Shown in pieces: positions 1 to 19,000 of a DNA stretch of 64,000 nucleotides. The notes under the pieces were generated by a model, which saw only the letters and a list, made by a program, of their open reading frames with translations, was not told the origin of the DNA and did no database searches. Numbering within the stretch: position 1 is the first letter of the stretch; each line of letters begins with the position of its first letter. Both the position numbers and the translations under genes were made by a program. Location of the stretch: the NCBI GenBank assembly GCA_965243135.1, contig OZ251539.1, forward strand, positions 1,312,001 through 1,376,000. The letters run 5' to 3'. This DNA is from Alphaproteobacteria bacterium (GTDB lineage: Bacteria > Pseudomonadota > Alphaproteobacteria > MPNO01 > UBA830).

Positions 1-28
1 ATCGGATGGTAAAGTTATCCCCACAGAA

Positions 29-691
29 GTGAATGGATGGATAATCAGAGGCGAAGGAATGGACAAAGGAAAGGAGGATCCGATAGAGAAGCAGCTGTGG
101 GATCCCGATATTGTCTGGATTGCAATCACGGAGAAAAATGTCAAGTCGATTGAGGGATATACACAAGGGATATTTTACAATTGGGATAAGCGGCAGGAAA
201 CACTAGATCAATTAATCGGATCGGAAGAGGGCAAATATGACGGGATGTGGGTGTGTGGAAGAATACACGAAATAAGCCAGAAACTACTTGAAATGGGTCG
301 AGGTTATCGAATATATGTGCATGCACGTCAAGTCTTTGGGAATGGGAAGGTGCAAGACCCTACAGATGAATGGGACCGTTATGACTATAATGTTGATCTG
401 CAGGAATCTGAGGATATGTATAGTATATACATTGGAAATATGATGGAAGATGAAGACGAATCGGTCAGTAAACTACTGATTGATGACCCTCATGAATGGG
501 GCGGTATGAGTGGCGGTGGAATTTGGTTAGCTCATATGAACGGGAGGGATTTTCGAGAGAAAGCTCTACCAGATATCACTCTGGTAGGAGTAGTATATGC
601 ACAGCACGGCATCGATCAACAAGGGCAATGGAGAGTGTTGCGTGGACACGGAATCAGAAGTCTGAAGCGAATATTAGACAGTGCAGGTTAA
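29..691 (+). CDS. Hypothetical protein, possible trypsin-like serine protease C-terminal part (probably 5'-partial)
   Basis: AT-richer ORF whose frame is open to the window edge; GGMSGGGIW followed by TLVGVVY resembles the trypsin GxSGG...lvGi motif. Confidence 0.45.
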   Translation: MNGWIIRGEGMDKGKEDPIEKQLWDPDIVWIAITEKNVKSIEGYTQGIFYNWDKRQETLDQLIGSEEGKYDGMWVCGRIHEISQKLLEMGRGYRIYVHARQVFGNGKVQDPTDEWDRYDYNVDLQESEDMYSIYIGNMMEDEDESVSKLLIDDPHEWGGMSGGGIWLAHMNGRDFREKALPDITLVGVVYAQHGIDQQGQWRVLRGHGIRSLKRILDSAG

Positions 692-779
692 TTGACAGTC
701 TTGACGTCGAATTTGGCGACGTGATCTGTGTTCGAATAGAACCGCACTCTTCGCTAAATGTCTGATTTTGCAATTACCT

Positions 780-1750
780 CAGACATCGGGCGACATTGAA
801 CTGTTCGTTAGGGTTTTTGCGATCACTGATCCGCTTCGTTCCGTAGCAGCCTCGATGTCTTTATTAGCGACATGCGCGTAGCGCAAGCTCATCAGCACGT
901 TCCGGCGGCCGAGTAGCCGCACGACGACCGGCAGCGGAATGCCCTGCAAGACCCCGCATGGCCGGCGGTGGTATGACGCAGATCGTGGAGGCGTACATCT
1001 TCCAGCCTTCCTCGGATACCCGTGCTAAACTGCGAGATTCCCCGATCGGGGCCCTGCTGGATTCAAGGGCGGCGAAAAAACATACGGGCCGCCTGTCCGA
1101 GGCTGGCGTCCTGATGCCGCGGGCCCCCTTCGCTCAAGAAGATTTTTCGGGGTCCGGTTTTTTGCTGTTCGCAAGATACAAGGTTTGACCGTCTACTTCA
1201 TGCCATTGCAAATTGACGATTTCGCTTTTTGGGTATCTTGTCGCGAGCAGAAGACGGATGATGTCCGCTTGCTGTTTGCGCGATGCTGTCTCGTGCCCGC
1301 AGCCGTTCAGTTCCGTATGGAGACAGCGGAGTTCCTCTCGCGACAGGAAGCGAGTGAGCCATGGACGCCTGTTCCGCTTGATGCCCTGCGCCGGATTCCT
1401 TGTGACCGCACATGATCGCGTGGTTCATCATCTGCAGAAATATGTCCGGCGTTCTGTTAGCTCCGTCGGGTGCCGTCCGGCTGTACCGGTCGAACCACCC
1501 GTCGACTTCCGCCGCGGCGACCCGGTCGAGCGGCATGGAACCGAAGGTCGGCAGCAACCGATCGTTCAGGACGAAGTTCACCATCCGTTGCGGCGGCGGC
1601 TTGTAACGCTTGCAGCAGGCGGCTTCCCGCTGATTCACGAAGAAATCCCCGAACGACGGCGCCGTTTTCGCGGGCGCGACAGCCTCGAAGATCACAATGA
1701 GGCGTCTCTGGGCGTTCCGCGGGGAGCGGAAGCAGCAATACTCGGGTACT
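780..1750 (-). pseudogene. Tyrosine recombinase/phage integrase, fragmented
   Basis: Minus strand reads LEDVRLHDLRHT (~965-1005) and LLGRRNVLMSLRYAH (~870-915); the N-terminal core-binding part RLLPTFGSMPLDRV lies in 1198..1695; frameshifted and interrupted near 1020-1185. Confidence 0.75.
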
Positions 1751-1761
1751 GACCAGGGGGT

Positions 1762-2694
1762 TCAGTAGCCGCGGTCGAGGTCGACCTGACCGACCAAGGG
1801 CTGGCCCGCCAAAGCCCTCCTGACGTTCTCCGCGATAACGGCGGCGCCAGATTCCGGCAGTGACCACGCCGCTGAGTGCGGATACAAGGTAATGCGGGGA
1901 TGCGCCCAAAAAGGGTGATCAGGGGGCAGGGGTTCCTCGCGGAATACGTCGAGGGTGGTATAGGACAACTGCTCCGAGTCGAGCGCATGGAGCAGATCCT
2001 GATCGACCAGATGGGCGCCGCGGGCGGCGTTGATCAGCACGGCGCCCGCGGGCAGCGCGCCGAGCGTCGTCGCGTCCAGGATATCTTCGGTTTCGGGGGT
2101 GAGTGGAAGAAGGCAGATCAGAATTTCGCTTCGTTCGAGCATCCGGAACAATCCGTCTTCTCCGGCGAGCGATTCCACGCCCTTGATCGATTTCCGGGAC
2201 CGCGACCAGCCGGCGACGGAGAATCCCAGGTCGCGGAGCGCTTCGGCGCAGGCGCGGCCCAGATACCCCAAACCGAGGATCCCGATCCGGCGTCGACCGG
2301 GTAGCGTCTGCGGCAGCAACCGCCATTCGCGGGCCGCCTGCTGAGCGCGATACTCCGGTTCCCGGCGATGATACCGGAGAACTTCCATGGTCACGAATTC
2401 GATCATGCCCGCCCGCAGGCCGGGATCGACCAAGCGGGCCAGCGGAACCCCCGCCGGCAGATTGCCGTCGCGAAGCACATGCTCGACGCCGGCGCCGAGC
2501 GACAGGATCGCCTTGAGGCGGGGAAGGGTCGCCAGGAGACCCGGCGGCGGCTGCCATGCCAGTGCGATGTCGATTTCGTCGACGTTTCCCGCCGCGTCCG
2601 GCCAGATCCGGAAGTCGAGGTCGGGAAGTTCGGCTTGCAGCGCCGCCTTCCAGGCCGCAGGATCTTCGCCATCGCAGAGAAACAGGAACGCCAT
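1762..2694 (-). CDS. ghrA: Glyoxylate/hydroxypyruvate reductase A (D-2-hydroxyacid dehydrogenase)
   Basis: GAGV, GILGLGYLG Rossmann motif, INAARG, LDVF..EPL, PHSA. Confidence 0.9.
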   Translation of the reverse strand: MAFLFLCDGEDPAAWKAALQAELPDLDFRIWPDAAGNVDEIDIALAWQPPPGLLATLPRLKAILSLGAGVEHVLRDGNLPAGVPLARLVDPGLRAGMIEFVTMEVLRYHRREPEYRAQQAAREWRLLPQTLPGRRRIGILGLGYLGRACAEALRDLGFSVAGWSRSRKSIKGVESLAGEDGLFRMLERSEILICLLPLTPETEDILDATTLGALPAGAVLINAARGAHLVDQDLLHALDSEQLSYTTLDVFREEPLPPDHPFWAHPRITLYPHSAAWSLPESGAAVIAENVRRALAGQPLVGQVDLDRGY

Positions 2695-3253
2695 CGCATG
2701 TCCGCTTTGATGAAACGCTGCCGGCCGATCCTACACGATTCGCCTGCGCCGGGTTGAAACCGGGGAGCGGTCGAAATGGCGTTTTGCGCGTCGCGCGCGT
2801 TTCGTCGGCCGCAGGCGTAGAACGCGGGGAGCGCATTGCCGCGGTCAAGCGCCTGTTTTGCAGTCTCGCGGATCAACGCGCGAGGCGGCTTTTCCCGAAA
2901 CATGACCGGATCACGTTCGCGCGTGAGCGCCGCCTCCGACAATCGTATTTCGTTCCATGATGGCGGTTTCCGGGCGTCGCAGCGCCATGGCGGGCGCCGG
3001 AAGGGCAGGGGCAGGCCAACGCTGCGCAAGGACAAGCGAGGCCCGCTTTGGCGCATCACTATCGGTTCGTCGACGAATGCAGATAATGTTCGCTCAATCC
3101 GCCATCCGGCCCTTTTCGCAAGTGCCGGTGAGACTATATCAACTTCCAGCCGTTCCCGGCGGCTGCCGGATTTCGGGGCAGTTCGGGAGAGATGCCCCAA
3201 AGCCGTCTTCGACCAAGGTTCGCCGGGAACGCATGTAGAAGGAGGCCGTCTCG

Positions 3254-4372
3254 ATGCTCATTGGAGTGCCGAAAGAAATCAAGGATCACGAATACCGCGT
3301 GGGGCTCACGCCGGACAGCGTGAACGAAGCGGTTCTGCACGGCCACGACGTGATCGTGGAGCAGGGCGCGGGCGCGGGAATCGGCGCCGACGACGCCGAT
3401 TACGTAGCAGTGGGAGCGACGGTCGCAGCCGGTTCCGAGGAAGTCTTCGAACGGGCGGAGATGATCGTCAAGGTAAAGGAGCCGCAGGCCGGCGAGCGGG
3501 CGATGCTGCGCGAAGGGCAGATCCTGTTCACGTATCTCCATCTCGCTCCCGACCCGGAGCAGACCGCGGACCTGGTCGAGAGCAAGGCGGTGTGCATCGC
3601 TTACGAGACGGTAACCTCCCCTTCGGGCGGGCTTCCTCTGCTCGCGCCGATGTCGGAAGTCGCCGGCCGGCTCTCGATCCAGGCCGCGGCTCACGCGCTC
3701 GAAAAGGTCAATGGCGGAAAAGGAATGCTGTTGGGCGGGGTGCCCGGGGTGCTGCCCGCCAAGGTCGTCGTCATCGGCGGCGGCGTGGTCGGCACACATG
3801 CCGCGCACATCGCGATGGGAATGGGCGCGGATACATGGGTGATCGACCGTTCGGCCGAGGCGCTCAAGGCATTGTGGCGCCAGTTCGGACGCCCGTTGGA
3901 CACCGTCTACTCCACCCGTACCGCGATCGATCGTCACGTCACCGGCGCGGACGTGGTGATCGGCGGGGTGCTCATTCCGGGCGCGGCCGCTCCCAAGCTT
4001 GTCACCGCGGACATGGTTCGCCGCATGAAACCGGGATCGGTCGTGGTCGATGTCGCCATCGATCAGGGAGGCTGCGTCGAGACCTCGCGCCCCACGACCC
4101 ACAGCGATCCGACTTTTATCGTCGACGGCGTGGTCCACTACTGCGTCGCGAACATACCGGGCGCGGTGCCGCGAACCTCGACGTTCGCGCTCAACAACGC
4201 GACCCTGCCGCATGTCCTCGCCCTCGCGAACAAGGGTTACCGTCAGGCTCTCGTCGACGACCCGCATCTGCGCAACGGCCTGAACGTGCATGCCGGCCAC
4301 GTCACCTGCAAGGAGGTTGCCGCGGCGCTCGGCTACGACTACCGGGATCCTGCGGAGGCGGTCGCCGTCTGA
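3254..4372 (+). CDS. ald: Alanine dehydrogenase
   Basis: [50 protein letters not shown]; GGAGG RBS upstream. Confidence 0.97.
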
Positions 4373-4497
4373 GGGGCCACCCTCCCTGCAGCGGCGGTCG
4401 GCAGCGCGCCCGGCAGCGCGTCGGATTCGTTATCGGGCGGCCGCCTCCGTCGTTGTTTCCCGGTGCGCAGCCGTCGTCGGGACCGCGCAACCGGGAT

Positions 4498-7194
4498 TCA
4501 GAACGAGAGTCGATAGCCTGCAAGCAAGGTCAATTCCGGAGTGCGGCCGACCGTGTGGTCGGGCTGGAACGATACCGTCGCCCCGAAACGCGGCGTGCCG
4601 CCTATCGCGTCTGCAGGCCGGCGCCAGTCCGCGCCGATGTCTATCTGGCGTCCGGACGGAGTTAGCGGCGCGTTCACGACGCTGCGCACCACCTCGCCCC
4701 GCTTGGTGCGGCCGGTAGGAACGGCAAGCTGCATCCGGCCTCGCTCCACCCGCAAAGGCTGGGACAGCGAAAAACGAAGCCGGTCGCCGCCTTCGAAAGC
4801 GCGCTCCGCGGAAAGGGAAAACGCGGAAGTGGCGACAGTGGACACCTCCTTGACCATGCCGCCCGACGCATCGGAACCGGTCACGCCCAGTTCCGCTTCG
4901 GCGCGTATTCCCCAGTCGCCGACAGCCGTGTCGAAACCGGTTCCGGCGAAGGCGACGCCCGAGGAGAGCTTTCCGAACGCGCCGCTCGCGTTCGTGCCCA
5001 GCGAGCTTCGGAATTCGCGCAACGCGCCGAATTGCAGGCCGAGGGCGGAGCTCGGCGGCTGCCATGCAAGCACCACGCCCGCTTCGGGAACCCTTACCTC
5101 ACCCCCCAATCGGTTGTTCAACGCCGGAGCGGCGGCGAGCGCCGACGCCCGGAGTTCTCCTTCGCCGAGGGCCAGCGAAAGGCCGCCGTAATCCACCGGG
5201 ACCAGAGAGGCGTGTCCGCCGGACCACCATTCGCCTGCCGTCCGGTTTATTCCAAGCTGCATGCGCGTGGACGCGAAGGGCGTTTCGACGATCCCGTCGA
5301 GGGAGGCGCCCGCGCGAAGGCTGTCGCGCCGTTCCGATCGCATGAACCGGGTCAACCGGTCTTCAAGGGCCGGCCTGGCGGCGGTATGCGTGAATCCGTC
5401 CAGCCCCAACCAGAACGGAGCGTTCAACTCGTCGAAGACCGCCACCTCCCGGCCCCTGAACGCCGCGGCGAGGGCGTTGCCCGCAGGGCCACCGCTGCGC
5501 AGCATGCTCGACGCCGCGGCCACCCGTTTTCCGGACAGTGCGTTTCCAAGCGCGATGGTCATCCCTCCGACGGGCTCCGTAGCGGCGTCGAGGTCCATCA
5601 ATCCCCATCCGTGCGTGGACGACAGCTCGCATGTGGAGCGGTCTCTGTCGGTATCGAGGTGTTCGGGACATTGCTCTCCCTCCGCTACCGAGTCGGGCCG
5701 GGTGGCATCGCTGTCCCGGTCAGCGGTGCGGTAGAGGCGGGTCAGGATTTCGGTGTTGCCCATTTGGCCGCGGAAGTAGTGCTTCAGGACAGCGAGGCCG
5801 CCCGCCACGAGGGGTGCCGCGAAAGACGTGCCCCGCATGCCGCGGATATAGCCCCTTACTGGTCTGGAATCCGTAGGTGAGGCCGGGCCGAAATAGGCTA
5901 CCAACATGTCTTCGCCTGGAGCGGCGATGCACCATTTGGCGGCGATGCCGCACCGGTTCGAGAACCCGGCGAGCGTACCGTCGCGCCGTGTCGCCACCAC
6001 CGAGACCGAATGTTTTCGCAGCCCTTCGATGTGTACGGGAAGAGCGTTGAGGACCGCCGGGGAGGTGGCATCGATCGTCCCCTCGCGGGACAAATCGTCC
6101 CCGATGCCCGTTACAACGATATTGACGCAATTGTCCGTCCCATCAGTACACTTCTGCCCATGGTCGTTGCCGGCCGCCCAGACAAGCAAGGTCTTGTCCG
6201 CGTCATCCTTGCTGGATTGCGCCGCCGCCGTGATGGTTTCGTCGAGGGCCCTTTCGAGGACCATCCTGTCGTAATTTTCAATCAGGCCCTGAGCAGCGAA
6301 ACTCATGTTCAGGATGTCCACGCCCTGGTCGGGATCCAGCGCGGCGCGAAGCCGAGGGCCCAATGCGCCGGTATCGTAATTAGCCAGATTACTGATCGAA
6401 ATCGGTTCGTAGGGCCTGTCAGAACCCGATCCCAACGGGATGGCATACATCTTCAAGTTGGCGCCCCAGGCGATGCCGTGAAAATCCCATTGTTCGAACC
6501 CATGCCCAGATGGCACCCCTCGGTCCCGCTGGGCGGCGATCAGGCTCGCCACTGCCGTACCGTGACTGAAGCTGCTGCCGTCTTCGTCTTCCGCTCCGAG
6601 CATCGTCTCAGTAACTCGGAGCTGATCGAATTCCCAATGATTTTGATCAATGCCTGTGTCGATAAGCCCCACCGTTACCCCGGTTCCAGGTGCCCCAAGT
6701 GCCACAGCAGCGACCTCTCTTTGCCTTTGCGCGAGTTTGGCGTAGGCATTCGCTGCATGGGATGCGCCCAGACCCCAATTTCGGGAAATCGATCCAAATT
6801 GGGTACGATATTCTTGGTGCTTCCTGTAGTCGTCGGCTGTGGGCGGCGGGTTTGTGGGCGGCGGGTTTGTGGGCGGTGGTGGCGGTGATGCTGCGGGCGG
6901 CGGTAGATCGATCAAAGAGATCGCTAGGTCGGGTGTAAGGGCGGGAGCTAGAGGATCTGTCGGCCGCTCTTCCTCTTCCTGCCGCTCTTCCTCTTCCTGC
7001 CGCTCTTCCTCTTCCTGCCGCTCTTCCTCTTCCTGCCGCTCTTCCTCTTCCTGCCGCTCTTCGCTTGTCGGCGCGACGCCGCCGCCGCCACCCCCTCCGC
7101 ATGCGGCCAACAGCGGTCCGCCAACGATGCAGAGCGCTAGCAGCCACGCTGCAATCCGGCCGTTCGAGCGCTTCGTCACTTGGGCGAGTGTCAT
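4498..7194 (-). CDS. Lipoprotein S8 (subtilisin-like) serine protease with probable C-terminal beta-barrel
   Basis: Lipobox LLAAC-GGGGGG; triad LIDTGID / SHGTAVA / GTSFAAP; AAGND oxyanion motif; beta-rich C-terminus ending YRLSF. Confidence 0.88.
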   Translation of the reverse strand: MTLAQVTKRSNGRIAAWLLALCIVGGPLLAACGGGGGGGVAPTSEERQEEEERQEEEERQEEEERQEEEERQEEEERPTDPLAPALTPDLAISLIDLPPPAASPPPPPTNPPPTNPPPTADDYRKHQEYRTQFGSISRNWGLGASHAANAYAKLAQRQREVAAVALGAPGTGVTVGLIDTGIDQNHWEFDQLRVTETMLGAEDEDGSSFSHGTAVASLIAAQRDRGVPSGHGFEQWDFHGIAWGANLKMYAIPLGSGSDRPYEPISISNLANYDTGALGPRLRAALDPDQGVDILNMSFAAQGLIENYDRMVLERALDETITAAAQSSKDDADKTLLVWAAGNDHGQKCTDGTDNCVNIVVTGIGDDLSREGTIDATSPAVLNALPVHIEGLRKHSVSVVATRRDGTLAGFSNRCGIAAKWCIAAPGEDMLVAYFGPASPTDSRPVRGYIRGMRGTSFAAPLVAGGLAVLKHYFRGQMGNTEILTRLYRTADRDSDATRPDSVAEGEQCPEHLDTDRDRSTCELSSTHGWGLMDLDAATEPVGGMTIALGNALSGKRVAAASSMLRSGGPAGNALAAAFRGREVAVFDELNAPFWLGLDGFTHTAARPALEDRLTRFMRSERRDSLRAGASLDGIVETPFASTRMQLGINRTAGEWWSGGHASLVPVDYGGLSLALGEGELRASALAAAPALNNRLGGEVRVPEAGVVLAWQPPSSALGLQFGALREFRSSLGTNASGAFGKLSSGVAFAGTGFDTAVGDWGIRAEAELGVTGSDASGGMVKEVSTVATSAFSLSAERAFEGGDRLRFSLSQPLRVERGRMQLAVPTGRTKRGEVVRSVVNAPLTPSGRQIDIGADWRRPADAIGGTPRFGATVSFQPDHTVGRTPELTLLAGYRLSF
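6963..7062. repeat. 18-bp tandem repeat (GCCGCTCTTCCTCTTCCT) x~5.5 encoding (QEEEER)n
   Basis: Direct reading; in frame within the S8 N-terminal linker. Confidence 0.95.
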
Positions 7195-7646
7195 GGTCGT
7201 GCACCCTCAAGCTTGAAGAGATTCCTTCATTGGCACCTATAGCACAAATCGCGACCCGCGAAATCGATTTTGACCCGCCGTGAAGTTCGGAATTCTGGCA
7301 CGCAGTCGGACGCCGCCGAGCGAGATCCGGAGACCGCGGTGGGCCTGGAGTCGGCAGCGCTGGGCGAAACCCGCGTACCGGTGCCGTGAACGCGGAAAAG
7401 TAACGCAGACCGTTCCCAGCATGTCGGAGCTGAGCGCCAGAGTTCAGTGGGCGGACTCCACATGCGGTACGGATGTCGCACCCCTGTTGAAGAGACCGCC
7501 AAGCCTCGGAGAGAGAACGCCGCGACGAACGCAGATCGTTTGCCGAGCGCGAGATTGCCGAGAGGCTTCGTTCCGACGCGGCGAAGCAGGGGCGATTTCG
7601 CAAGCCGGACATGACGTTGAACGCCGTCCTGTCGCCGACCGGGAGG

Positions 7647-8130
7647 GTAAGCGTTCGCACCCGGGGACGAAAAAACTCGTCTGGGGACTGCTCACGGGAT
7701 TTTGACCCTTCGTCCTCATGGAGTTGGCGATACCGGATTCTTGCTTCGAAACGACAGACGGGCAGGGGGCTTTGCTGCTCGCAGCGACCCTCCGGCGGCG
7801 GGACGAGGCGTTGCGGCGGCGGGATGACGCGCGTCAAGAAGCGGAAGCGTTGCGCTGGAAGGAAGTAAGCGCGCGGCAGCAGGCGGCGTTCTGGCGGCGC
7901 GTCGGGCGCGAGACCGCGCTGAGGCGGTGCGCAAGGAACTGGAGCGCCCAGCGTCTCCGGTGAACAAACTCGAACGGGAGGTGAGCCGACTCCGGCATGG
8001 CGAAATCGAGAGCCGCTTGCGCTGCACGTCTTGAAATGGCTTTCAGGGCGCACGGCCCGATTCTGGCACGGAAAACTGCGAATTTTCCGCGCCGGGAACG
8101 CCGTTTTCTCGGATTCCGCCCCAAGCCGCT
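7647..8130 (+). mobile_element. IS66-like left-end remnant
   Basis: Starts GTAAGCGTTCG; degenerate coiled-coil ORF MELAIPDS; paralogous to 16499-16990. Confidence 0.7.
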
Positions 8131-8169
8131 ACCCCGGCGTGGGATCGCCCTGCGGCGTAGGCCGGCCCC

Positions 8170-8235
8170 TTGAAATCCGGCGAACCGGTCCTATATGTAG
8201 TTATGCACGGTAGTTTGTGCACAACTCAAGGGAGG
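8170..8235 (+). promoter_or_regulatory. Putative sigma70 promoter, inverted-repeat operator and RBS of the MBL operon
   Basis: TTGAAA-N16-TATATG; AGTTATGCAC-N8-GTGCACAACT; GGGAGG before ATG 8244. Confidence 0.45.
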
Positions 8236-8243
8236 CACTGAAA

Positions 8244-9389
8244 ATGGCTATCGACCCGCCTGATCAGGGGTTCATCTTCTGGCCGGTTGGCACCGGCGAC
8301 AGCACGACCATTCGCGTGGCGGAGAAAGTCTACCTGCAGGTGGACCTCCGGCACATGGCGAAATCCGAAGACGATAAGGACGCGGCTTGGCCCGTGATCG
8401 ACGAGTTGATCGAGATACTGCCGAAGCGGGATGGCGGGCCGTTCCTATCGGGGTTCGCTCTTACCCATCCCGATCTGGACCACTGTCAGGGCTTCGAGGA
8501 GCTCAACGAGCGCGTGTTTATCTCGGAGCTCTGGATGTCGCCAAGGACGTTCCGTGAAATCCGTGAGGACGAGGATCTTTGCGACGACGCGCAAGCCTTC
8601 CACGACGAAGCGATGCGACGCGTTGAAGCGACCATTGCGGCCGGTGGCGATCCTGGGCGCGGTGACCGGATTCGTATCATTGGTTACGACGACCTGCTTC
8701 AGGAGCCCGATTTCCAGGGCTTCCCCGAAGAATTCCTGTCCGTTCCGGGCCAAACCGTCACGACCCTCGACGGTGAAGAGCTCTCCGGGACATTCGAGGC
8801 GTTCGTTCACGCGCCCTTCAAGGACGACAGCTTTGGCGATCGGAACGAATGCAGCTTGGCCTTTCAGATAACTCTTCGCGACGGAGACGGCGTCGGCCGG
8901 GCGCTGCTCATGGGCGACCTCAATTACCCGATCGTCCGGCGCATCTTCGATCGTAGCGAGGCCGAAACGCTCGCCTGGAATGTGCTTCTGGCGCCCCATC
9001 ACTGCTCGAAGTCCGTCATGTACTGGAAAGACGAGGACGAGGAAACTCTGAAGCCCGAGATGGTGCGGGATATCGGTAATGCGGCCCTTGATCCGGGATA
9101 CGTTGTGTCGAGCTCGGAACCGGTGCCAGCGCGCAACGAGCCGGGAGACAACCCGCCGCACGCCAAGGCGAAGAGGCAGTACGAGCGCATCGTCCCCAAC
9201 GAGTTCCTGTGCACCCACGAACATCCGGACAAGAAGAATCCCGAACCGATCGTCTTCGAGGTCAGCGAGAACGGCTTCGCATACGTCGGCGAAAGCGAAG
9301 CGAGTAAGTCAATGGGCGACGCACTGAGAGCGGCCGGTGTTGCCGTAGCCCCTGCTGAGGCGGTCGGATTTGGTCGTGGCGCTGAGTGA
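8244..9389 (+). CDS. ComEC/Rec2-like metallo-beta-lactamase-fold hydrolase (probable nuclease)
   Basis: VGTGDST, THPDLDHCQG, NECSL, LLMGD, PHHCS; low-complexity tail ending VGFGRGAE. Confidence 0.88.
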   Translation: MAIDPPDQGFIFWPVGTGDSTTIRVAEKVYLQVDLRHMAKSEDDKDAAWPVIDELIEILPKRDGGPFLSGFALTHPDLDHCQGFEELNERVFISELWMSPRTFREIREDEDLCDDAQAFHDEAMRRVEATIAAGGDPGRGDRIRIIGYDDLLQEPDFQGFPEEFLSVPGQTVTTLDGEELSGTFEAFVHAPFKDDSFGDRNECSLAFQITLRDGDGVGRALLMGDLNYPIVRRIFDRSEAETLAWNVLLAPHHCSKSVMYWKDEDEETLKPEMVRDIGNAALDPGYVVSSSEPVPARNEPGDNPPHAKAKRQYERIVPNEFLCTHEHPDKKNPEPIVFEVSENGFAYVGESEASKSMGDALRAAGVAVAPAEAVGFGRGAE

Positions 9390-12300
9390 AGGACAACGGA
9401 TTGCGCTTGCACAACTCCGGCGCATCGCCGACGCAGGTAGTTCCCCCCTCCGGATCATCGGTGTCGACGAAGAACCGGCCCCCGATGCTTCCCTGAACGT
9501 CGATATCACCCTCGATTGCGCGCGTCACAAGCGCATCGAGGGTGGCCTGCCGCTGCACGACCGAGAAGGCGTCACGCTCTCGATCCCTGTGGATTTCCCC
9601 TTCACTCCGCCATCCGTCGACACCGCCCACACCCGATTCCGCGGCTTTGGGCACGTACAATGGGAACAGCGTCTCTGCGTGTACTTGTCCGCCGAGACAC
9701 AGTGGATCCCTTCGCAAGGCATGTTCGGATTCTTGGCGCAGATCGACGAGTGGTTTCGACGCGGAGCCCGCAACGAACTCGACCGCCCCGAAGGCCCGTT
9801 GCATCCGCCGGTTGCCTATACGGCTGCCTCCACGGCGATCTGCGTGAATGCCGATACCCCGGACCGCGACACTTGGCCATGGTTCGGCGCGGCCGTACTG
9901 TCCCGGACCAAGTCCGACCTTCTCCAGGTCGACGCTTGGCGGCCTATACACGAGGTCCCGGACGATCAGCCGTTCGCGCCGGCTGCGCTGCTCGACTTTG
10001 AACTTCCGTTCGAATACCCCCGAACCGTCGATGATTTGCTCTGCTACCTTGAGAGCAGAGGTAACCCCGGCGATAGCTTGTTCAGGGACCTGATGCTGGC
10101 CTCCGACCGTGTCCCTGCGGGCACGCCGTTGTACGTAGGAATCGGCGCTCCCTCGCGCGGCATCGCGGGCGATGTTCATCAACGACGCCAGCACATCGCA
10201 TTCTGGGAAATCGAAGCGGCCGACGTCGCCACGCTGCGCACAGCCTCCCTCGCCCGCCGATTGAGCAATCTCTACAATGATCAAAATACCCCGACGGTGA
10301 TTTATGCATTGATCGACGACGGATTGAAAGCCCACCGCCAATGGCGTCGCAAAGCCTGCGTGCGCTGGTGCCGCGTGATTGAGAATCGGCCTGAGATCGT
10401 TACCCGACGAGACGAAGGTACGCCGATGGACTGGTTTCGCGGCAAACGGGTCGCGCTCTGGGGTTGCGGAGCGATCGGCGGGCTCATCGCGGAGCACCTC
10501 GCACGAACCGGGGTTGGCCAACTCACGCTCTACGATTATGGCCGTGTCACCCCGGGCGTGTTGGTGAGACAAAACTTCTCTGCAATCGACACCAATGAGA
10601 CGAAGGTCGCCGCGCTCGCGAGCCGGGTGCAATCGATCGCACCCGATGTCGCAGTAACGTCCAGATGCGAAGACATCATTTCTCAGACGTTGGCAGGAAC
10701 CGATTGGGACGCGGATGTCGACGTCATCATCGATGCGACCGCGTCCCTGTGGGTCAGAAGCAAGCTCGAGGCCGTACTCAAAGACCACGAACGGCGCATT
10801 CCAATCGCATCGGTAATGATGAGCGCTACAGCGCGACACGCCATGGCTGTCGTTGTCCCGCCCGGATATCAAGCTGGGCCCCTTGACGTCCATCGGCGTC
10901 TCGGTCTGGTCGCCGTGACACGGGACTGGTTGAGCGAATGGGCCAAGGCCTTCTGGATATCGGACGCCATTGAAGGCCTCCGTCAGCCTGAACCTGGATG
11001 CTCCGATCCCACCTTCGTGGCATCTCACGCCGATGTCGCCAGCTTGTCCGCACGAGCACTCAACGCGTTGGCTGAGAGACTTGCCGAGCCCGGCGACGCC
11101 GCCAGCGCCTTCCTTATTGCCCCGTCATCCGGCAACCCCCAACATCATTTTCGGTTTCCCCCGGATATTCGCTGGGTTGCCGGCGGACTCGACTTTCGGG
11201 TGTCGGCCAACGCCTGGCGGGACATGACCGGCTGGATCCGCACCGGCGCCCGTGAACGATCCCCGGAACACGAAACAGGCGGGTTGCTGTTCGGACAATT
11301 CGACGAGACTCTGGGAATCGCATGGGTGACAAACGTCAGTGGTCCGCCGCGGGACAGCAGTTTCTCCGCAGAGCGCTTCGTCTGCGGAACGCACGGTACA
11401 ACGGATCTGTGCGAGGACTACGAAGAGCGGACCCACCGGATCGCGCGTTACGTCGGAACCTGGCACTCCCATCCGATCAGCCCGGCCCGGCCCAGCGCCA
11501 CGGACTACAACGGCATCGCCACCATCTTCGCGAGCGCGCCTGATAACGGCGCTCACCAGCTCATGGTCATCGTCGGACATGCAGCCGAACGGGAGCCGCA
11601 ACTCGGGGCCTACGCGTTCGAGAAGCGAGATTTGACCAAGCGCCGCGCCGGACTTGCAATGGCAGCGCACGGCGGAGTGACGACGCCGCCTCCCTTGGCG
11701 CCGCTTCCTAAAAAGATCGGGTTATCGCTGTCCGGCGGCGGATCGCGCGCCGTCGCATTTCATCTCGGCACGCTTCGGGCTCTCGAAGACCTCAAGTTGC
11801 TTGATGAGATCGATGTGATCTCCGGTGTATCGGGTGGATCGATCATAACCGGCCTAATGGGCTATACCGAGGCTCCTTTCGCTCAAATCGACCGCAACGC
11901 GGTCGAATTCCTCCGACGCGGCCTGGTAAGGCCGGCACTCAGAAAACTCCTGAATCCCGCACGCACTGCACAGCTTCTGTGGAACCTTGCGGTCGTGGCC
12001 GTGCCGACAGCGGCAACCGGGGTTATCGCATGGTCGGCAAGTCGGCTCGCTTCGTTCTTTCCCGTGCTTCGCCATGCCAGCGACATCGTTTCGCGCTGGT
12101 CGTGGCCGCTTCGATGCCATTATTCGCGCACACATGTTCTTGCAGACGCGATCGCCGACGTAGTTGGCGCGCAAAACTGCGACGCGCCCACACGCCAAGG
12201 CAAGTCAATCGTCTTCAACGCGTGCGAACTGCGGACCGGCACCGCGTTTCGTATGAGCAACGAACGCTTCGGCACTTGGAGATATGGCTGGGCGCCCGCG

Positions 12301-12870
12301 AGCGAACTCCGAATCGCCGACGCAGTCGCGGCCTCGGCCGCCTATCCACCACTCCTGCCGCCGTTCGACTGGAGCCGTCCCTTCGAGCGAAACGGAAAGA
12401 CCAAGATGCACCGCGTGATAGTCACCGACGGCGGCGTCTTCGAGAACCTCGGAGTAAGCGTGATGGAACCGGGGCGGGATGTTGCAGTCAGCGTGACCGC
12501 CTACAACCCCGACATCATCATCGCGAGCGACGCGGGAGCCGGGCAATTCACTGGCGAGACCGTACCCATCAGTTGGCCAATACGAATGATCCAGGTCGTC
12601 GCTGCGGTCATGCGCAAGATTCAGGACGCTACCAAACAGCGGCTGCACGACCACGCGAAATCCGGGCGACTTGACGGCTTCATCTACGCGAATCTGGGCC
12701 AGGTCGATCAAAGGGTGCCTTTGAAACCCGCCAACTGGGTGGATCGCGAGGAAGTGATCCATTACCCAACCGACTTCTCCGCAATGTCGGAAGAAAACAT
12801 TCGGAAGCTTTCCGGACGTGGTGAAGCTATCACTCGGGCACTGGTGACGCAGTATCTGCTCAGCGACTGA
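9376..12870 (+). CDS. E2-like / ThiF(E1) / JAB / patatin-like phospholipase fusion protein
   Basis: E2: FPFTPP...HVQWEQRLCVY; E1: WGCGAIGG, D...VRQNF, IIDATAS, EPGCSDPTF; JAB: ETGG...WHSHP...PSATD; patatin: SGGGSRA, GVSGG, DGGVFEN; GTG start overlaps the MBL 3' end. Confidence 0.9.
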   Translation: MALSEGQRIALAQLRRIADAGSSPLRIIGVDEEPAPDASLNVDITLDCARHKRIEGGLPLHDREGVTLSIPVDFPFTPPSVDTAHTRFRGFGHVQWEQRLCVYLSAETQWIPSQGMFGFLAQIDEWFRRGARNELDRPEGPLHPPVAYTAASTAICVNADTPDRDTWPWFGAAVLSRTKSDLLQVDAWRPIHEVPDDQPFAPAALLDFELPFEYPRTVDDLLCYLESRGNPGDSLFRDLMLASDRVPAGTPLYVGIGAPSRGIAGDVHQRRQHIAFWEIEAADVATLRTASLARRLSNLYNDQNTPTVIYALIDDGLKAHRQWRRKACVRWCRVIENRPEIVTRRDEGTPMDWFRGKRVALWGCGAIGGLIAEHLARTGVGQLTLYDYGRVTPGVLVRQNFSAIDTNETKVAALASRVQSIAPDVAVTSRCEDIISQTLAGTDWDADVDVIIDATASLWVRSKLEAVLKDHERRIPIASVMMSATARHAMAVVVPPGYQAGPLDVHRRLGLVAVTRDWLSEWAKAFWISDAIEGLRQPEPGCSDPTFVASHADVASLSARALNALAERLAEPGDAASAFLIAPSSGNPQHHFRFPPDIRWVAGGLDFRVSANAWRDMTGWIRTGARERSPEHETGGLLFGQFDETLGIAWVTNVSGPPRDSSFSAERFVCGTHGTTDLCEDYEERTHRIARYVGTWHSHPISPARPSATDYNGIATIFASAPDNGAHQLMVIVGHAAEREPQLGAYAFEKRDLTKRRAGLAMAAHGGVTTPPPLAPLPKKIGLSLSGGGSRAVAFHLGTLRALEDLKLLDEIDVISGVSGGSIITGLMGYTEAPFAQIDRNAVEFLRRGLVRPALRKLLNPARTAQLLWNLAVVAVPTAATGVIAWSASRLASFFPVLRHASDIVSRWSWPLRCHYSRTHVLADAIADVVGAQNCDAPTRQGKSIVFNACELRTGTAFRMSNERFGTWRYGWAPASELRIADAVAASAAYPPLLPPFDWSRPFERNGKTKMHRVIVTDGGVFENLGVSVMEPGRDVAVSVTAYNPDIIIASDAGAGQFTGETVPISWPIRMIQVVAAVMRKIQDATKQRLHDHAKSGRLDGFIYANLGQVDQRVPLKPANWVDREEVIHYPTDFSAMSEENIRKLSGRGEAITRALVTQYLLSD

Positions 12871-13739
12871 TCGTTCCGCCGCTTCCGGAAGGGTATCAGA
12901 ACCAAGCCTCTCGGAAAATGCTGAGGAGATGTCGCTCAATTTCGCAAACCTTGCGGATTTCCCAGCGCGATAAGTACTTGGCTGCCAAATGCGCGCCCGG
13001 TAAGACAACCTTCGGCGATCAGGCCTTCGCCAATCGTCCTGACAACGGTACCGATGGCGTTTGAGTTATCTTCTTGAGGGTGCAAGTCTGATCGCCAAAC
13101 CGGAAACAGCTATAGATTTTCACCGGTCACGAAGTACGGGCTGCGACCGTCGGGCGTTCGGGGTCAGCGTTCGTCAAGGAAGGCGCCGAACGAGAGGGGG
13201 CGTTCGTCGATTTCGAGGTCGGGCAAGCGGATCGTCGCGCTGTGCCGGGCGGTGCCCGGGATGAGAGGGGCGGCTCGCGGGGGCACCAAGGTCGGACTGC
13301 GCGGACGCAGAAGACCCGCGCTGTCGGTCCGGTGCTTTCGGACGCGCAAGGGGTCGTTTTCGCAGGTCGACAACGACTCGGGCTGACGGCGGCCGATTGC
13401 CGCGCTCTCCTGTCCACTGCACGCCGCCGGCCAAACTCTTCGGAGAGTTGGGGGCTGTCGTCGAGCCACGCGTCCGTTGGAGACGACGGGCGGTCTCCAG
13501 AAGGAAAAGGGAAGGGGCCCGCGAGACGGAAACGGTGCGAAGCCGTTTTCTGCGCCGTCTCGCTCGACGGGTTTGCCCCGACGGGTTCGCCCCGACGGGG
13601 ACGAAGAGGCGCATGGGCGCGAAGCGTCCTGCGGGGCGGTCAGTTTCCAGGACGCGGAGGGCGTGAAAACGCTCGGTTTCGGGCCGGAAGCCGGTAAGGC
13701 GACAGCGCGACTCGCCGAAGAGGTCGCCCGCCAGGGCGC

Positions 13740-14190
13740 GGCTCGAGCTGGTCGCCGACGCCGCGCCTGACAACTGGACGTTTCTCGACAAGCTCCGGTC
13801 CGACGAACGGGCGGTCGATTTTTTCTTGCGCATCTCGGCGAGGCCCCCGCCCGTCGCGAGCGCTGCCACGAAAAGTACCGTGCCGTCCTGCGCGACGACG
13901 TCGACGGCAAGGTCGGCGCTCTCCGCGACAAGGCGACGACGGAAACGGCGCTCAAGGTTTTCGAGCGCGAGCTTTTCCGCAAGCGCAGGCGCGCGCTACG
14001 CGAGCCTCAAGCAAGGCCAGCGGCTGCACGGTCGGGCGTCGTCCGCCAACAAGGTGCTGGTCGACCAGCGCATGAAGCGGGCGCGCTGGAGCGTCGAACG
14101 GAGTCGAAACGTCCTCGCCCTCGGAGCATTGGTCGGACCGTCTGGCATGGCGACTAGAGCTGCGAACCAGGCGTTGAACGTCGCCTGACG
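13740..14190 (+). pseudogene. ISKra4-like transposase remnant
   Basis: DNWTFLD, ANKVLVDQRMKRARWS; homologous to 63269-64000. Confidence 0.65.
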
Positions 14191-14383
14191 GCGGAAATCC
14201 CGATCCCGTAAATAAACCAGAGATTTTTGGCAAAAAAGATCCGCACCCGTCGGCAGGCGTGGGAAACAATGATCAAAATTTATGCCGCAAATCAGGGACG
14301 ACCGGCTTTGCAGCTTGACAATGGAACGCTTGGTGCAGTATTGGCCATACGAGGCCCGCAATTGTCACGAGGGAAGATTCGGT

Positions 14384-16495
14384 ATGAAAGCCGTTCGGTT
14401 TCGTGTTCAGAATTTCCGCAATATCGATGATAGCGGCTGGATACCCTTGGAACGGGTAACCGCTTTCGTTGGCCGAAACGAGTCTGGAAAGACCTCGTTG
14501 CTCAAGGCGCTTCACAAGTTCAATTCAGCTACACCGGAGCCCTATGATGAGCCCTATGATGCGCAACGAGAATTTCCTCGGGATCGGTATGTGCGCGACT
14601 ATGTCGCCAAAGGCTCGAAAGGCGAAGACTGGCCCGTCTGCTCGGTCGAGTTCGAACTTCCAGAACACCTTCGGGCGGAAATCGGTCAGATCCTCGAACA
14701 GAGTGGAGAACCACCGACCAAGACCACCCTGACACGCCATTACGATGACTCGCTCGCGTTCGAGTATACGCCGCCGCTGGACGAGCGACCGCTTGCGCCC
14801 GATCCAGTGATTGCCGCGCTCGATAAGTTTGCTTCGAGCGCCCGTCGGCTTGAGGTGCCGGCCGAGGGCCGGAAAGAATTTACGGCAAAACTGCGCAAGG
14901 AATTGACCGAATGGGCGACGGTTTGGAAAGACAAGCTGAAGAATGTCGTCGATCTATGCGGCGATGAGGGAAAAGCGCTCTTGACCGAGCTTCGAGAAGA
15001 GAATGAAGACAATATCATCCCGCAGATTGCCGACATCGTAGAAGCGCTTCAAGCCGCTATCGAACCGGTCTTGGGCGCTGCAGAAAAAGGTTCAATTACT
15101 AATCGGATTGACGAGTTGATCGAGGACAATCTTCCCGTTTTTATTTATTTCGAGAACTACGGTATTATCAGAAACGCTATCTGGCTACCCCGTCTTGTTG
15201 CTGATTTAGGACGAAGCGAGATTAGTCCTCGTGTGCGCTCGATCAGTGCTATGTTCCGCCATGTCGGTCTTGATCCGGAGCAGATTAGAGACCTTGGCTA
15301 CGAACGGGTGGGGCAACAACGAGACCGTGGGCAGATGTCGGCAGATGTTTCCGCCGATCTGAAACGTAAGGCAGAGCGTGCGATTCTTCTGAACGCGGCT
15401 TCGCTCGACATTAGCCAAAAATTTTCGGCGTGGTGGTCGCAACGCCGTCACAAGATTCGTTATCAAGCCGATGGCGATTATTTCCGTATCTGGGTCGCCG
15501 ATGACCGCCGTCAGGACGTGGAAATTGAACTCGAATCTCGTAGCAGAGGATTTCAGTGGTTCTTCTCATTCTACCTCGTATTCTTGGTTGAGTCCGAGCA
15601 CTTCCACAAGAATGCTATTTTATTGCTTGACGAGCCGGGTCTGCATCTTCACCCGACCGCGCAGCAAGAGTTGATCCAATTTTTCAAGAAACTTTCGGAA
15701 ACCAATCAACTAGCTTATACGACTCACTCGCCCTTCCTGATTGACGGAGAGCATTTGCATCGCGTGAGGCCGGTCACGGAAGACGACAGTGGCCGGTGCC
15801 GGATAACGGCGGAGACGTGGTCGAAGGACCGTGAGACGATTTTCCCGCTTCAAGCTGCCGCAGGATACGCGATGGTTCGTGGTCTCTTCCAGCATCGAAA
15901 AAATGTTCTGGTCGAAGGAATAACCGACTTTTATTACCTGCATGCGCTGTCCCAGCAATGCGCGAGATCCGGTCGAATCGCGCTGCCGGACGATATCTAC
16001 ATAACGCCGTGCGGCGGCACGAAGCTTGTCGGATACCTTGCTTCGCTGTTTCTCGGCCAAGAGGTTCGACCATTGATTCTTCTTGATGGCGACCAAGCTG
16101 GCCAAGTCCGTAGGGACGCGCTGATGAGTGAGCTATACGCCGGGCACGATTCCGAAATCCTGATGCTTGATTCCGTGCTGAATCGTGCGGAACAGGAGGT
16201 CGAAATCGAAGACATCCTCGGCGAGAAAATTGTTCTTGAGGCATTTGATGCCGTCATTGGCGGGGCTCCCGCTATGAATGGAGAAAACTTGCCGGCTGGA
16301 AGCGTTCCGAGCCGGATAAAGGCAGCTGCAAAGGATCAGGAGATCGACCTTCCAGGCGGCTGGAAAGCGTCCGTTGCCTTGCACCTCGTGTCGGATTGGG
16401 CTGAAAAGGGGACGATTCTTCCGGACCACGTTCTCGATACTGCGGTCCTATTGTTCACTGCGATCAACGACAGATTTGAAGGGGTGAAAGTCTGA
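14384..16495 (+). CDS. OLD-family ATP-dependent nuclease (ABC ATPase + TOPRIM)
   Basis: VQNFRNI, GRNESGKT Walker A, SRGFQWF signature, LLLDEP, TTHSP, TOPRIM VEGITD and DGD. Confidence 0.85.
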   Translation: MKAVRFRVQNFRNIDDSGWIPLERVTAFVGRNESGKTSLLKALHKFNSATPEPYDEPYDAQREFPRDRYVRDYVAKGSKGEDWPVCSVEFELPEHLRAEIGQILEQSGEPPTKTTLTRHYDDSLAFEYTPPLDERPLAPDPVIAALDKFASSARRLEVPAEGRKEFTAKLRKELTEWATVWKDKLKNVVDLCGDEGKALLTELREENEDNIIPQIADIVEALQAAIEPVLGAAEKGSITNRIDELIEDNLPVFIYFENYGIIRNAIWLPRLVADLGRSEISPRVRSISAMFRHVGLDPEQIRDLGYERVGQQRDRGQMSADVSADLKRKAERAILLNAASLDISQKFSAWWSQRRHKIRYQADGDYFRIWVADDRRQDVEIELESRSRGFQWFFSFYLVFLVESEHFHKNAILLLDEPGLHLHPTAQQELIQFFKKLSETNQLAYTTHSPFLIDGEHLHRVRPVTEDDSGRCRITAETWSKDRETIFPLQAAAGYAMVRGLFQHRKNVLVEGITDFYYLHALSQQCARSGRIALPDDIYITPCGGTKLVGYLASLFLGQEVRPLILLDGDQAGQVRRDALMSELYAGHDSEILMLDSVLNRAEQEVEIEDILGEKIVLEAFDAVIGGAPAMNGENLPAGSVPSRIKAAAKDQEIDLPGGWKASVALHLVSDWAEKGTILPDHVLDTAVLLFTAINDRFEGVKV

Positions 16496-16498
16496 CAT

Positions 16499-17450
16499 GT
16501 GAGCATTCGCTATACAGGGAACGAAAAAATTTGTCTGGGGATTGGTCACGGGATTTTGACCATCCGTCCTCATGGAGTTGGCGATACCGGATTCTTTCTT
16601 CGAAACGACCGACGGGCAGGGGCTTTGCCGCTGGCAACGACCCTCCGGCGGCGGAACGAGGCGTTGCAGCAGCAGGACGACGCGCGTCACGAAGCGGAAG
16701 AGCGTTGCGCTGGAAGGAAGTAAGCGCACGGCAGCAGGCGGCGTTCTGGAAGATGCAGCGCGTCGGGCGTGAGACCATGCTGAAGCAGCGCGCAAGAAAC
16801 TGGAGCGCCCGGTGTCTCGCGAACTCGAACGGGAGGTGAGCGGCCTCCGGCAGGGCGAAATTGCAAGTCGCTTGCGCTGTACGTCAAAAAATGGCTCAAA
16901 GGTGCGGCCCGATTCGGGCACGGAAAATCGCGAATTTTCCGCGCCGAGAACGCCGTTTTTGCAGCTTCTACCCCAAGCCGCTCCGCGACCGCAAACGATC
17001 GCCCGCGTTCGGACATCGCTTCGGGTTCGCCGCGCCGCATCAGGCCTGTCTGCAAACCGGAAATATGCTTTTGTTCCGTGTTCGCCAGCCTGCCTTGGGG
17101 CCTGCCGACGGCTGGCCGGGGCGGTCCGCGGGAGCGCCGAACGGACGGCAGCCGACAATAATCGCGCGGCGCAAGCGCCTCGGTTGAGGGCGCGGCATGA
17201 CGAGCGCGGCGATGCTCGTCTGAAGGCACGCAACCGCAAGCTCGTCCAGGACGGGTACGGCAACGAACGTTCATGCCCGCGACGCCCGGGCAGCGGCCCG
17301 ACAACGCGAGAGCCTCGTCGTCGGGGCCGAAAGCCGGGGTCGCCGTCGAACGGGCGTGCGCTGCGCAACGCCGGTGGAGCTTCTTGAGCCGGAGGAGCGT
17401 CGCTGTTCGAACTGCGGCAAGCCGCTCCGGCGAGACCGGGCGTGGCCCGA
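16499..17450 (+). mobile_element. IS66-like remnant (left end plus degraded transposase 5' part)
   Basis: GTGAGCATTCG end; copy of 7647-8130; downstream RGRKPGS..G and EERRCSNCG zinc-finger fragments. Confidence 0.65.
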
Positions 17451-17803
17451 CCCCGGGAAGAGGGAATTTATCGCTGCGGCAGGGGTGCTCGCCGGCCGGT
17501 CCGGCACTGCCATCGCGACGGAGACCGCCTGTGTCGCGCTTCGGAAGGGAGAAATCTTCCGCTGGAGTTATCCAGGGATTTTGCGTCGAGGCTCCTCGAC
17601 AAACATCGGCGCAATGCCGCGTTCAGCCACTGTCTTCCCGCTCGCTATCTCGGCAGTGGCGTTGCTTCTCTGGAGAATGACGCTTTGCCGTTTCCGAAAA
17701 ATATGCGATTCCCTTAATGCATTGCTCTCGACAGCTTCTTGATCTGGACAACGACTGCGGCCGGCGCGAACGGGTGGGCCGTCTTTAAGGAAGGAAGTGC
17801 GGT

Positions 17804-18020
17804 ATGAACAGGCACTTGACGGCGATCGTTGAACGCGAAGGGGACGGTTACGTGGCCCTGTGCCCGGAAGTTGACGTCGCCAGCCAGGGAAGCGCCGTAG
17901 CCGAAGCGCGCGATAATCTCGAAGAGGCGTTGACTCTGTTCTTCGAGGCGGCTCCGGCGGAGGAAGTCGAAAAGCGCTTGCGTAGTGCAGGTAACTCGCG
18001 TCGAGGTCGCCGTTGATTAG
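17804..18020 (+). pseudogene. hicB: HicB-family antitoxin (3' frameshift)
   Basis: LTAIVEREGDGYVALCPEVDVASQG..EARDNLEEALTLF; C-terminal VTRVEVAV shifted into another frame. Confidence 0.8.
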
Positions 18021-18234
18021 GCTGCGCGTTCTTTCTGGTCGTGAAGCCTGCGGAGTCCTGGCGTCTCATGGTTTCGCCGAGGTGAGGAGACGCGGCAGTC
18101 ATGCGCAGGGAGAGTGGCGCAAGTACCGCTCCGGTGCCGGAGGGGGTTGGGTGCTGGCGCGCTGCTGTCGATCGTTCGCCAGTCGGGTCTGCCCGGGTGA
18201 AGGTTGCGGAGCGGACTGTCGAGGGTTTCCTTGA
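18013..18234 (+). pseudogene. hicA: HicA-family toxin, degraded
   Basis: LRVLSGRE..L..HGFAEVRRRGSH, after which the frame degenerates. Confidence 0.7.
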
Positions 18235-18789: not shown

Positions 18790-19000
18790 ATCCTGCTCAC
18801 CCCGTGTAACTTTGGGGGTGGTTCTCCCGGCGTCGCGCCGCTCGCCGAAATAACCGTTCCGCGTTCGGGCGTCGCGGCGCGAAGACAGGGCTATACGGGG
18901 CAGCCCTCGGCGTCACGCTCCTCTCGAACGGCCAGCGCCGCCGCGAAAAAACTTCGCGGAACGGCTTTTTTTGTGGCCTGCAGGTTAGTTGCACAGCAAA
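18790..19000 (-). repeat. Dispersed ~240-bp repeat, copy A (inverted)
   Basis: Reverse complement contains CGCCCGAACGCGGAACGGTTAT and AAAGTTACA..CGGGGTGAGCAGG. Confidence 0.85.

Follow-up and report, generated by a model that had tools for sequence, protein, structure and literature searches.

The 64,000-nucleotide window analysed here (contig OZ251539.1 of an alphaproteobacterial assembly, positions 1,312,001 to 1,376,000) carries a two-gene operon in which a metallo-β-lactamase (MBL)-fold enzyme is followed by a single protein combining ubiquitin-conjugating (E2), ubiquitin-activating (E1) and JAB peptidase domains with a fused patatin phospholipase. Comparison of the homologous proteins supports the view that the C-terminus of the MBL behaves like a conjugation end: its fixed feature is a small residue, nearly always Gly and usually preceded by an aromatic one, which closes a disordered linker or stands a few residues before its end, and the residues behind the conserved Gly appear to be variable and dispensable. 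Because both proteins pass curated NCBIfam equivalog cut-offs, the locus is assigned by sequence to the two-gene anti-phage 6A-MBL system, operon type 6a of Iyer 2006, which is a sister of the type II form of anti-phage signalling based on cyclic oligonucleotides (CBASS) with an MBL-fold hydrolase in place of the cGAS-like cyclase. The system in the window is a variant in three respects: the pro-tail of the MBL, the start codon embedded in it and the fusion of the patatin. The MBL gene and the elements at its 3′ end are as follows.

8244-9389, plus strand: gene of the 6A-MBL system MBL-fold enzyme, 381 aa (NCBIfam, AlphaFold2 (AF2), Foldseek and alignment), with the metal site D34, H75-x3-D79-H80 (nt 8466-8483), D225 and H252/H253
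9294-9386, plus strand: C-terminal linker and tail, residues 351-381, predicted by AF2 to be disordered; a short helix (357-364) touches the E2 domain in the predicted complex
9366-9374, plus strand: codons of G375-F376-G377, the conserved aromatic-Gly end found by homologue comparison; proposed to be the C-terminus of the mature protein, where adenylation and ligation would take place
9375-9386, plus strand: the R378-G379-A380-E381 tail, from the sequence and homologue comparison; proposed pro-peptide to be removed before conjugation
9376-9378, plus strand: GTG, conserved start of the downstream gene, within the first two tail codons as read in the MBL frame (cGT Ggc); 14-nt overlap

The MBL open reading frame (ORF) occupies 8217-9389 on the plus strand and codes for 390 aa when counted from the GTG at 8217, the start of the longest ORF; the ATG at 8244, backed by database gene calls and homologue alignments, gives 381 aa. 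The 381-aa protein ends in AAGVAVAPAEAVGFGRGAE (nt 9330-9386), with ...SMGDALRAAGVAVAPAEAVGFGRGAE as its final residues directly before the TGA stop at 9387-9389. No Pfam match was obtained for this protein. It scored 300.4 bits against the curated NCBIfam equivalog 6A-MBL_enzyme (NF058524, cut-off 220), and its AF2 model, built on 69 homologues (predicted local distance difference test (pLDDT) 90.8, predicted template modelling score 0.91), retrieved MBL-fold structures as the top Foldseek matches, namely the MBL domain of ComEC (9ic4, E 3.7e-10), then Pce, RNase J and ELAC. An initial annotation of the window, drawn from the letters of the DNA, was therefore right to call the protein an MBL despite the silence of Pfam. 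In the 69-sequence alignment, the metal-site columns D34, H75, D79, H80 and D225 are invariant and H252/H253 nearly so. Since the nearest folds are those of nucleases and phosphodiesterases, the model points to either a nucleic-acid-cutting effector or a signal-making enzyme. From residue 351 onward, the block-mean pLDDT values are 54, 50, 49 and 37; the tail ...AVGFG-RGAE described in the initial annotation is confirmed as the end of the protein, and the last ~30 residues are predicted to be disordered.

The MBL family is large, with more than 2,572 clusters at 90% identity (E ≤ 0.001, among 8,000 candidates examined) and 610 clusters at 50% identity and the same E-value threshold. A GFG with 3-4 residues behind it is found in 117 of the closest 120 database clusters and is absent from 3. 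For a broader sample we took the best 150 of the 50%-identity representatives and kept the 72 with a length of 340-460 aa, the other 78 being fragments or longer forms. An aromatic-Gly/Ala motif, [FYHW][G/A], lies inside the final 12 residues of 65 of the 72 (YG 26, HG 17, FG 14, FA 4, YA 2, WG 2), which answers in the affirmative the question raised by the initial annotation of whether an FG or YG is conserved among aligned C-termini; the column of G377 is invariant in the 69-sequence alignment, in which the lowest identity is 27%. Internal 12-mers of the same 72 proteins, used as background, contain the motif in 13% of cases and have it at the last position in 1.3%. Against this expectation of 1.3%, 32 of the 72 proteins end exactly on the motif, and in a further 33 it is followed by 1-8 variable residues. 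Such tails are commoner near the clade of the window: they occur in 14 of the 20 representatives with at least 42% identity and in 19 of the 52 below 42%, 28 of the latter ending exactly on the motif. To judge from these alignments, the family pattern would be that of a reactive C-terminus which is sometimes made as a pro-form.

The next ORF, in another frame, extends from the TTG at 9370 to 12870 (1166 aa) and overlaps the last MBL codons, by 14 nt if read from the GTG at 9376 and by 20 nt if read from the TTG, in agreement with the overlap with the E2 start reported in the initial annotation. The TTG is the first start of the open frame and is not conserved among relatives. The junction was compared between the window and 16 loci of close relatives (n = 17), and in all 17 a start codon in the frame of the downstream gene, cap2_3, lies inside the tail codons (GTG in 14, ATG in 3). 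The GTG stands 14 nt upstream of the MBL stop in 13 junctions, that of the window included; locus L026 has the same GTG 11 nt upstream of the stop and a tail one residue shorter, L030 and L033 have ATG at that place and a tail starting with His, and L040 has ATG 8 nt upstream of the MBL stop. The conserved N-terminus of Cap2_3 (..LSEGQ..) starts right behind the embedded codon, and the R-G (or H-G, S-G) of the tail would be the other reading of xGT-G or xAT-G. Of the two cleavage points that had been considered, after FG or after RG, comparison of the C-terminal motif across the family favours the Gly of FG as the mature end; RG is disfavoured, its codons holding the downstream start codon. 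Among nine more distant loci, four (L013, L015, L017 and L019) have an ATG within the Tyr/His-Gly codons (TAT/CAT GGN), and the MBL frame continues for 0, 2, 6 and 1 codons, respectively, to the next stop. Because the start codon is inside the tail codons at every one of the 17 close junctions, the tail is probably largely a by-product of the overlap of the two genes, an arrangement that would work only if the tail is removed or is of no matter. The rule that only tail-bearing MBLs overlap the E2 start proved too strict, since L013 is tailless and yet has its ATG within the His-Gly codons.

The downstream gene and the domains that it encodes are the following.

9376-12870, plus strand: Cap2_3-like E2-E1-JAB gene to which a patatin phospholipase is fused; the product has 1164 aa from GTG 9376 or 1166 aa from TTG 9370
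9514-9861, plus strand: Prok-E2_A domain, with H95 and catalytic Cys103 invariant (nt 9652-9678)
10441-10842, plus strand: ThiF/E1 adenylation domain, with GxGxxG 365-370, R379 and D389; Cys544 (nt 10999-11001) lies on a low-confidence loop
11254-11580, plus strand: Prok-JAB (JAMM) peptidase domain, with E635, H699xH701, S709 and D712 invariant
11722-12459, plus strand: patatin-like phospholipase domain, with the GGGxR oxyanion motif 789-793, GxS821xG and D1020-G

Pfam places Prok-E2_A at residues 49-164 of this protein, in accordance with the earlier assignment of the gene as an E2, followed by ThiF (358-491), Prok-JAB (629-737) and Patatin (785-1030). The curated NCBIfam equivalog 6A-MBL_cap2_3 (NF058523) gave 356 bits at a cut-off of 320 and covers only residues 60-734, and the PADLOC model of Cap2-type E1-E2 proteins gave 263 bits. 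The model of the full 1166-aa protein (pLDDT 80.3) has Cap2 of type II CBASS as its top Foldseek match (7to3_A, E 1.3e-19), and Cap2 is also its best solved relative by sequence (E 4.4e-07). In a set of 50 Cap2_3 sequences with identities as low as 19%, the invariant residues include H95 and Cys103 in the E2 domain, G365xG367xxG370, R379, D389, R400, K412 and Cys544 in the E1 domain, and E635, H699xH701, S709 and D712 of the JAMM motif. The partner protein thus appears to have what conjugation would need, namely an invariant E2 Cys, the E1 residues and a complete JAMM. The patatin motifs (GGGxR 789-793, GxS821xG and D1020-G) are intact in the protein of the window. A query with all four domains matches at least 361 database clusters at 90% identity (E ≤ 0.001), with the patatin present in all 120 of the matches listed.

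The complex of the two proteins was predicted with residues 1-600 of the E2-E1 part and residues 1-377 of the MBL, that is, cut at Gly377. It scored 0.79, compared with 0.00 for the best of three controls; 58 of 80 solved complexes attained the score mark, as did 2 of 110 mismatched pairs, counts that hold only roughly here because alignments of our own were used. The prediction runs share at least 93% of contacts, with a partner pLDDT of at least 84, and the confident interface is formed by residues 18-126 of the E2 domain with MBL residues 271-285, 311-320 and 352-366. The model supports binding of the MBL to the E2 domain, short of showing it. The docking of the tail in the E1 adenylation pocket that the initial annotation suggested was not obtained: the body of the MBL was placed on the E2 domain, and the tail (367-377) was not confidently placed at any site. 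A complex of Cap2 with CdnD has been solved; here, the partner is an MBL and not a cGAS/DncV-like nucleotidyltransferase (CD-NTase).

The system has already been published, as has the idea of its MBL as the conjugated substrate, which is the working assumption of the field. In the available portions of the sources, Iyer, Burroughs and Aravind 2006 describe operon type '6a'; PMC13276650 ascribes 6A-MBL to van den Berg et al. 2024; a 2026 review lists it as a confirmed anti-phage component, credited to van den Berg 2024; and a 2025 preprint includes it among the jumbo-phage defence systems of P. aeruginosa. The Discussion of Ye et al. 2024 states that 'MBL pathways' conjugate their enzymes, citing Ledvina 2023, Jenson 2023 and van den Berg 2024. 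The anti-phage role of the system in the window is taken from the NCBIfam name and from passing mentions in print. As far as these portions of the literature go, we found no mechanism for 6A-MBL, and the combination of an MBL with E2-E1-JAB appears only in Iyer 2006 and in passing mentions; the main texts gave no description of the MBL C-terminus with its capped pro-form, of the start codon embedded there or of the patatin-fused architecture.

The precedents come from two better-described systems, again as given in the available portions of the respective papers. The cGAS of type II CBASS has a disordered C-terminal region that ends in Gly or Ala (E. cloacae CdnD ends ...GRFA); Cap2 makes a thioester with this C-terminus and ligates cGAS, and Cap3 cleaves linear fusions exactly past the terminal cGAS residue. 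In the Bil system, BilC trims BilA, exposing its Gly, before conjugation. From the comparison with these systems, we infer a pathway in which the MBL would be translated as a pro-form, its reactive Gly377 (...VGFG) capped by the four residues RGAE. On the strength of the Cap3 and BilC precedents, we propose that the cap is removed by the JAB domain of the neighbouring Cap2_3-like protein, much as Cap3 acts on cGAS fusions and BilC on BilA. The E1 domain would adenylate Gly377, and the MBL would be carried as a thioester, on Cys544 and then on Cys103, and ligated to a target. The start GTG 9376 being embedded in the first two codons of the cap, the overlap would couple the two genes, with the MBL frame running on to the next stop. 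The patatin would most likely be a membrane-damaging effector that in this clade has been fused to the conjugation enzyme. For the proposal as a whole, comprising the RGAE-capped MBL pro-form, uncapping by the JAB domain, E1/E2 conjugation via Gly377 and the patatin effector, we estimate a probability of roughly 0.7. The initial annotation had gone further and called the MBL itself the ubiquitin-like modifier. Comparison and the literature favour a modifier-like substrate, as cGAS is, whereas the MBL fold, with no ubiquitin-like (Ubl) β-grasp, disagrees with that name.

Several findings weigh against this pathway. Seven of the 72 representatives are without the aromatic-Gly/Ala motif; R-A-G replaces aromatic-Gly in one subclade (L020, L021 and E. 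coli pSE11-2, ...PRAG+VSNQ); the last 11 residues of the cut MBL (367-377) are in no confident contact in the predicted complex; and the available accounts of Cap3 in CBASS describe it mainly as an antagonist and not as an activator. The report of Cap3 as an antagonist of conjugation also speaks for an explanation that competes with masking only, not with conjugation, and to which we give a little less than an even chance: the tail would be no regulated 'mask' but gene-overlap read-through, constitutively trimmed without consequence, and the JAB domain would really deconjugate. The start codon inside the tail codons at 17 of 17 close junctions fits such read-through, as do the distant loci, in which the tail is just as long as the stretch between the embedded ATG or the motif and the next stop, and the range of tails from 0 to 8 residues, with 32 of 72 proteins tailless. 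It is less easily squared with the BilC precedent, in the available account of which a JAB peptidase can be an obligatory activator, and with a tail length kept at 3-4 residues in 117 of the 120 close-clade clusters, for which selection is possible, although the overlapping frame explains it too. The opposite extreme, in which the embedded start forces a pro-peptide, the JAB domain becomes an obligatory arming step, and the MBL is ligated in cis to Cap2_3-patatin or, Atg8-like, to an amine lipid, thereby switching on the phospholipase, strikes us as doubtful; if true, it would make the system a conjugation-gated effector without a nucleotide second messenger.

Two further explanations dispense with conjugation of the MBL. 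In one, which we regard as improbable, the MBL stays unconjugated and its C-terminal motif is a docking peptide that tethers it to Cap2_3 and regulates the MBL or the patatin, the E2-E1 part having another substrate. It agrees with tethering that the MBL body and helix 352-366, and not the extreme tail, hold the predicted complex together on the E2 domain; a docking peptide, however, needs neither an exact C-terminal place (found in 32 of 72) nor a last residue confined to Gly or Ala, the operon is without any other conserved candidate substrate gene, and both the same end chemistry in the CBASS precedent and the statement of Ye 2024, as far as these sources are available, are contrary to it. 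In the other, the E1 domain, which is ThiF/MoeB-like by sequence, would adenylate the terminal Gly of the MBL for sulfur-carrier chemistry (a thiocarboxylate, as for ThiS/MoaD with ThiF/MoeB). This seems most improbable, since the E1 domain is fused to a JAMM peptidase and to an E2 with an invariant catalytic Cys; Pfam detected neither a rhodanese nor a sulfurtransferase domain, Cap2 is the closest match in structure and the system is named as anti-phage.

Set beside its relatives, the locus shares with other 6A-MBL systems the conserved two-gene core, an MBL-fold protein followed by the fused E2-E1-JAB protein ('cap2_3'), and differs in the extra C-terminal patatin, which lies beyond the 60-734 span of the NCBIfam model, and in the four-residue tail past the reactive Gly, on which many family members end. 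With type II CBASS it has in common a Cap2-like E2-E1 with both catalytic cysteines (predicted) and a Cap3-like JAB, a disordered substrate C-terminus with a Gly/Ala end, and a patatin, which in CBASS is an effector such as CapV. In contrast to CBASS, an MBL hydrolase occupies the CD-NTase slot, and neither the operon nor the scanned flanking ORFs yielded a CD-NTase/SMODS domain; E2-E1, JAB and patatin are in one polypeptide; the substrate does not end on Gly or Ala owing to the RGAE cap, whereas the 1,583 cGAS proteins of Jenson et al., in the available part of that paper, do; and no cyclic-nucleotide signal for patatin activation is evident. The likeness to Bil (BilABCD) would be a JAB peptidase that pre-processes the modifier to a bare C-terminal Gly before E1 and E2, as proposed here. 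Bil, however, has a true β-grasp Ubl with a separate canonical E1 and E2, and the window has a 381-aa enzyme and a Cap2/Atg7-like E1-E2; no small Ubl gene was found in the operon, in which the MBL-fold protein is the only conserved partner.

The aromatic-Gly/Ala end offers a concrete residue to mutate, Gly377, and would, if the proposed pathway is true, provide a case of a whole hydrolase acting as a ubiquitin-like modifier, the second after cGAS. The capped form with the start of its neighbour inside is a natural test of a Cap3-type JAB as an activator. In the patatin-fused form, sensor, ligase, peptidase and killer would be combined in two genes, which are spread over very different phyla and many plasmids.

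The pairing of the two genes is well conserved. A sample of 401 genomes from across the phylum contained 12 with an MBL homologue. Of the 11 genomes other than that of the window, nine had a full-length MBL and usable downstream DNA; locus L002 (genome G117), with 765 bases to the contig end, and L022 (G304), with a match to an N-terminal fragment, were left out. In all nine loci, the E2-E1-JAB gene directly follows the MBL, in eight as a single gene of 743-790 aa and in L019 (G006) as ORFs of 495 and 306 aa, an IS66 transposase interrupting the gene, with a patatin gene behind. In L014, the MBL is 54% identical and ends in VGFGR, and the patatin is a separate third gene. Among close relatives, the MBL is directly followed by the E2-E1-JAB gene in 17 of 19 loci, the exceptions being L036, with ~3.4 kb of extra DNA between a truncated MBL ORF and the E2-E1-JAB gene, and L041, a match over 25 residues only with no E2-E1-JAB gene. 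The window has the 6A-MBL gene order, its MBL and cap2_3 genes being adjacent on the same strand with an overlap of 14-20 nt. Close MBL relatives (71-81% identity) are found in genomes labelled Acidobacteriota, Alphaproteobacteria, Gammaproteobacteria, Gemmatimonadota and Cyanobacteria, those at 63% and 52% identity in a bivalve gill symbiont and in Hydrogenedentota, and more distant ones on 283 plasmid records, of which 140 are conjugative. So patchy and mobile a distribution is in keeping with a defence system.

Individual relatives depart from the common form. The MBL gene of L038 carries an insertion of ~1.2 kb, the MBL ORF is truncated at 255 aa in L036 and at 302 aa in L039, and the E2-E1 ORFs are split in L030, L034 and L039; some of these broken copies may be assembly errors in metagenome-assembled genomes. 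Two loci, L015 (5046-6110) and L017 (5642-6622), have a second, ordinary Lactamase_B-family gene just downstream of E2-E1-JAB. On the E. coli SE11 plasmid pSE11-2 (L043, 3000-7395 of the locus), the gene of a WYL-domain protein lies upstream of the pair of MBL and ThiF-family protein (742 aa), in divergent orientation; the plasmid is a conjugative IncF plasmid, the pair adjoins integrases and umuD, and the MBL ends ...PRAG+VSNQ. Two longer MBL homologues differ at the C-terminus. P0360 (504 aa) has a C-terminal AGS_C sensor domain (PF18134, E 5.6e-25) in place of the short tail; AGS_C is also present on CBASS and Pycsar cyclases, which suggests that the MBL fills the same 'sensor/signalling enzyme' slot. 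P0358 (631 aa) has an internal ...RPHG followed by ~245 more residues with no Pfam match and may be either a natural fusion that needs cleavage after the Gly or a read-through in the gene call.

The operon is single-copy in its genome. The regions flanking it, 7195-8243 (1.0 kb) and 12871-14281 (1.4 kb), hold no ORF with a Pfam match, and no WYL, CapH/P or CapK/S-like regulator was found among their small ORFs. Rfam gave no match in 1-20000, no tRNA was found in the 64-kb window, and a simple scan for sigma-70-like promoters found none in 7100-14400. The MBL operon, a 1.4-kb stretch devoid of recognisable genes and an OLD-like gene are enclosed by a direct repeat of ~480 bp at 7640-8135 and 16505-16985, the two copies being 84-88% identical with small indels. 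We considered this repeat as the mark of an integrated island and rejected it as such: because pieces of it recur in the genome at 45 places, with a 75-nt module in ~30 copies, it belongs to a dispersed repeat family and is not a proven attachment (att) site. The OLD-like gene, at 14282-16495 on the plus strand, encodes a 737-aa OLD-family ATPase-TOPRIM protein (AAA_15, AAA_21 and OLD-like TOPRIM) with AriA, Old and GajA as its best PADLOC matches; it is likely a second defence gene adjoining the operon, and no partner gene was identified for it. On the other side of the operon, a subtilase (Peptidase_S8) gene occupies 4498-7194 on the minus strand, the N-terminal part of which contains six 18-nt tandem repeats (6938-7080) encoding (EERQEE)n.

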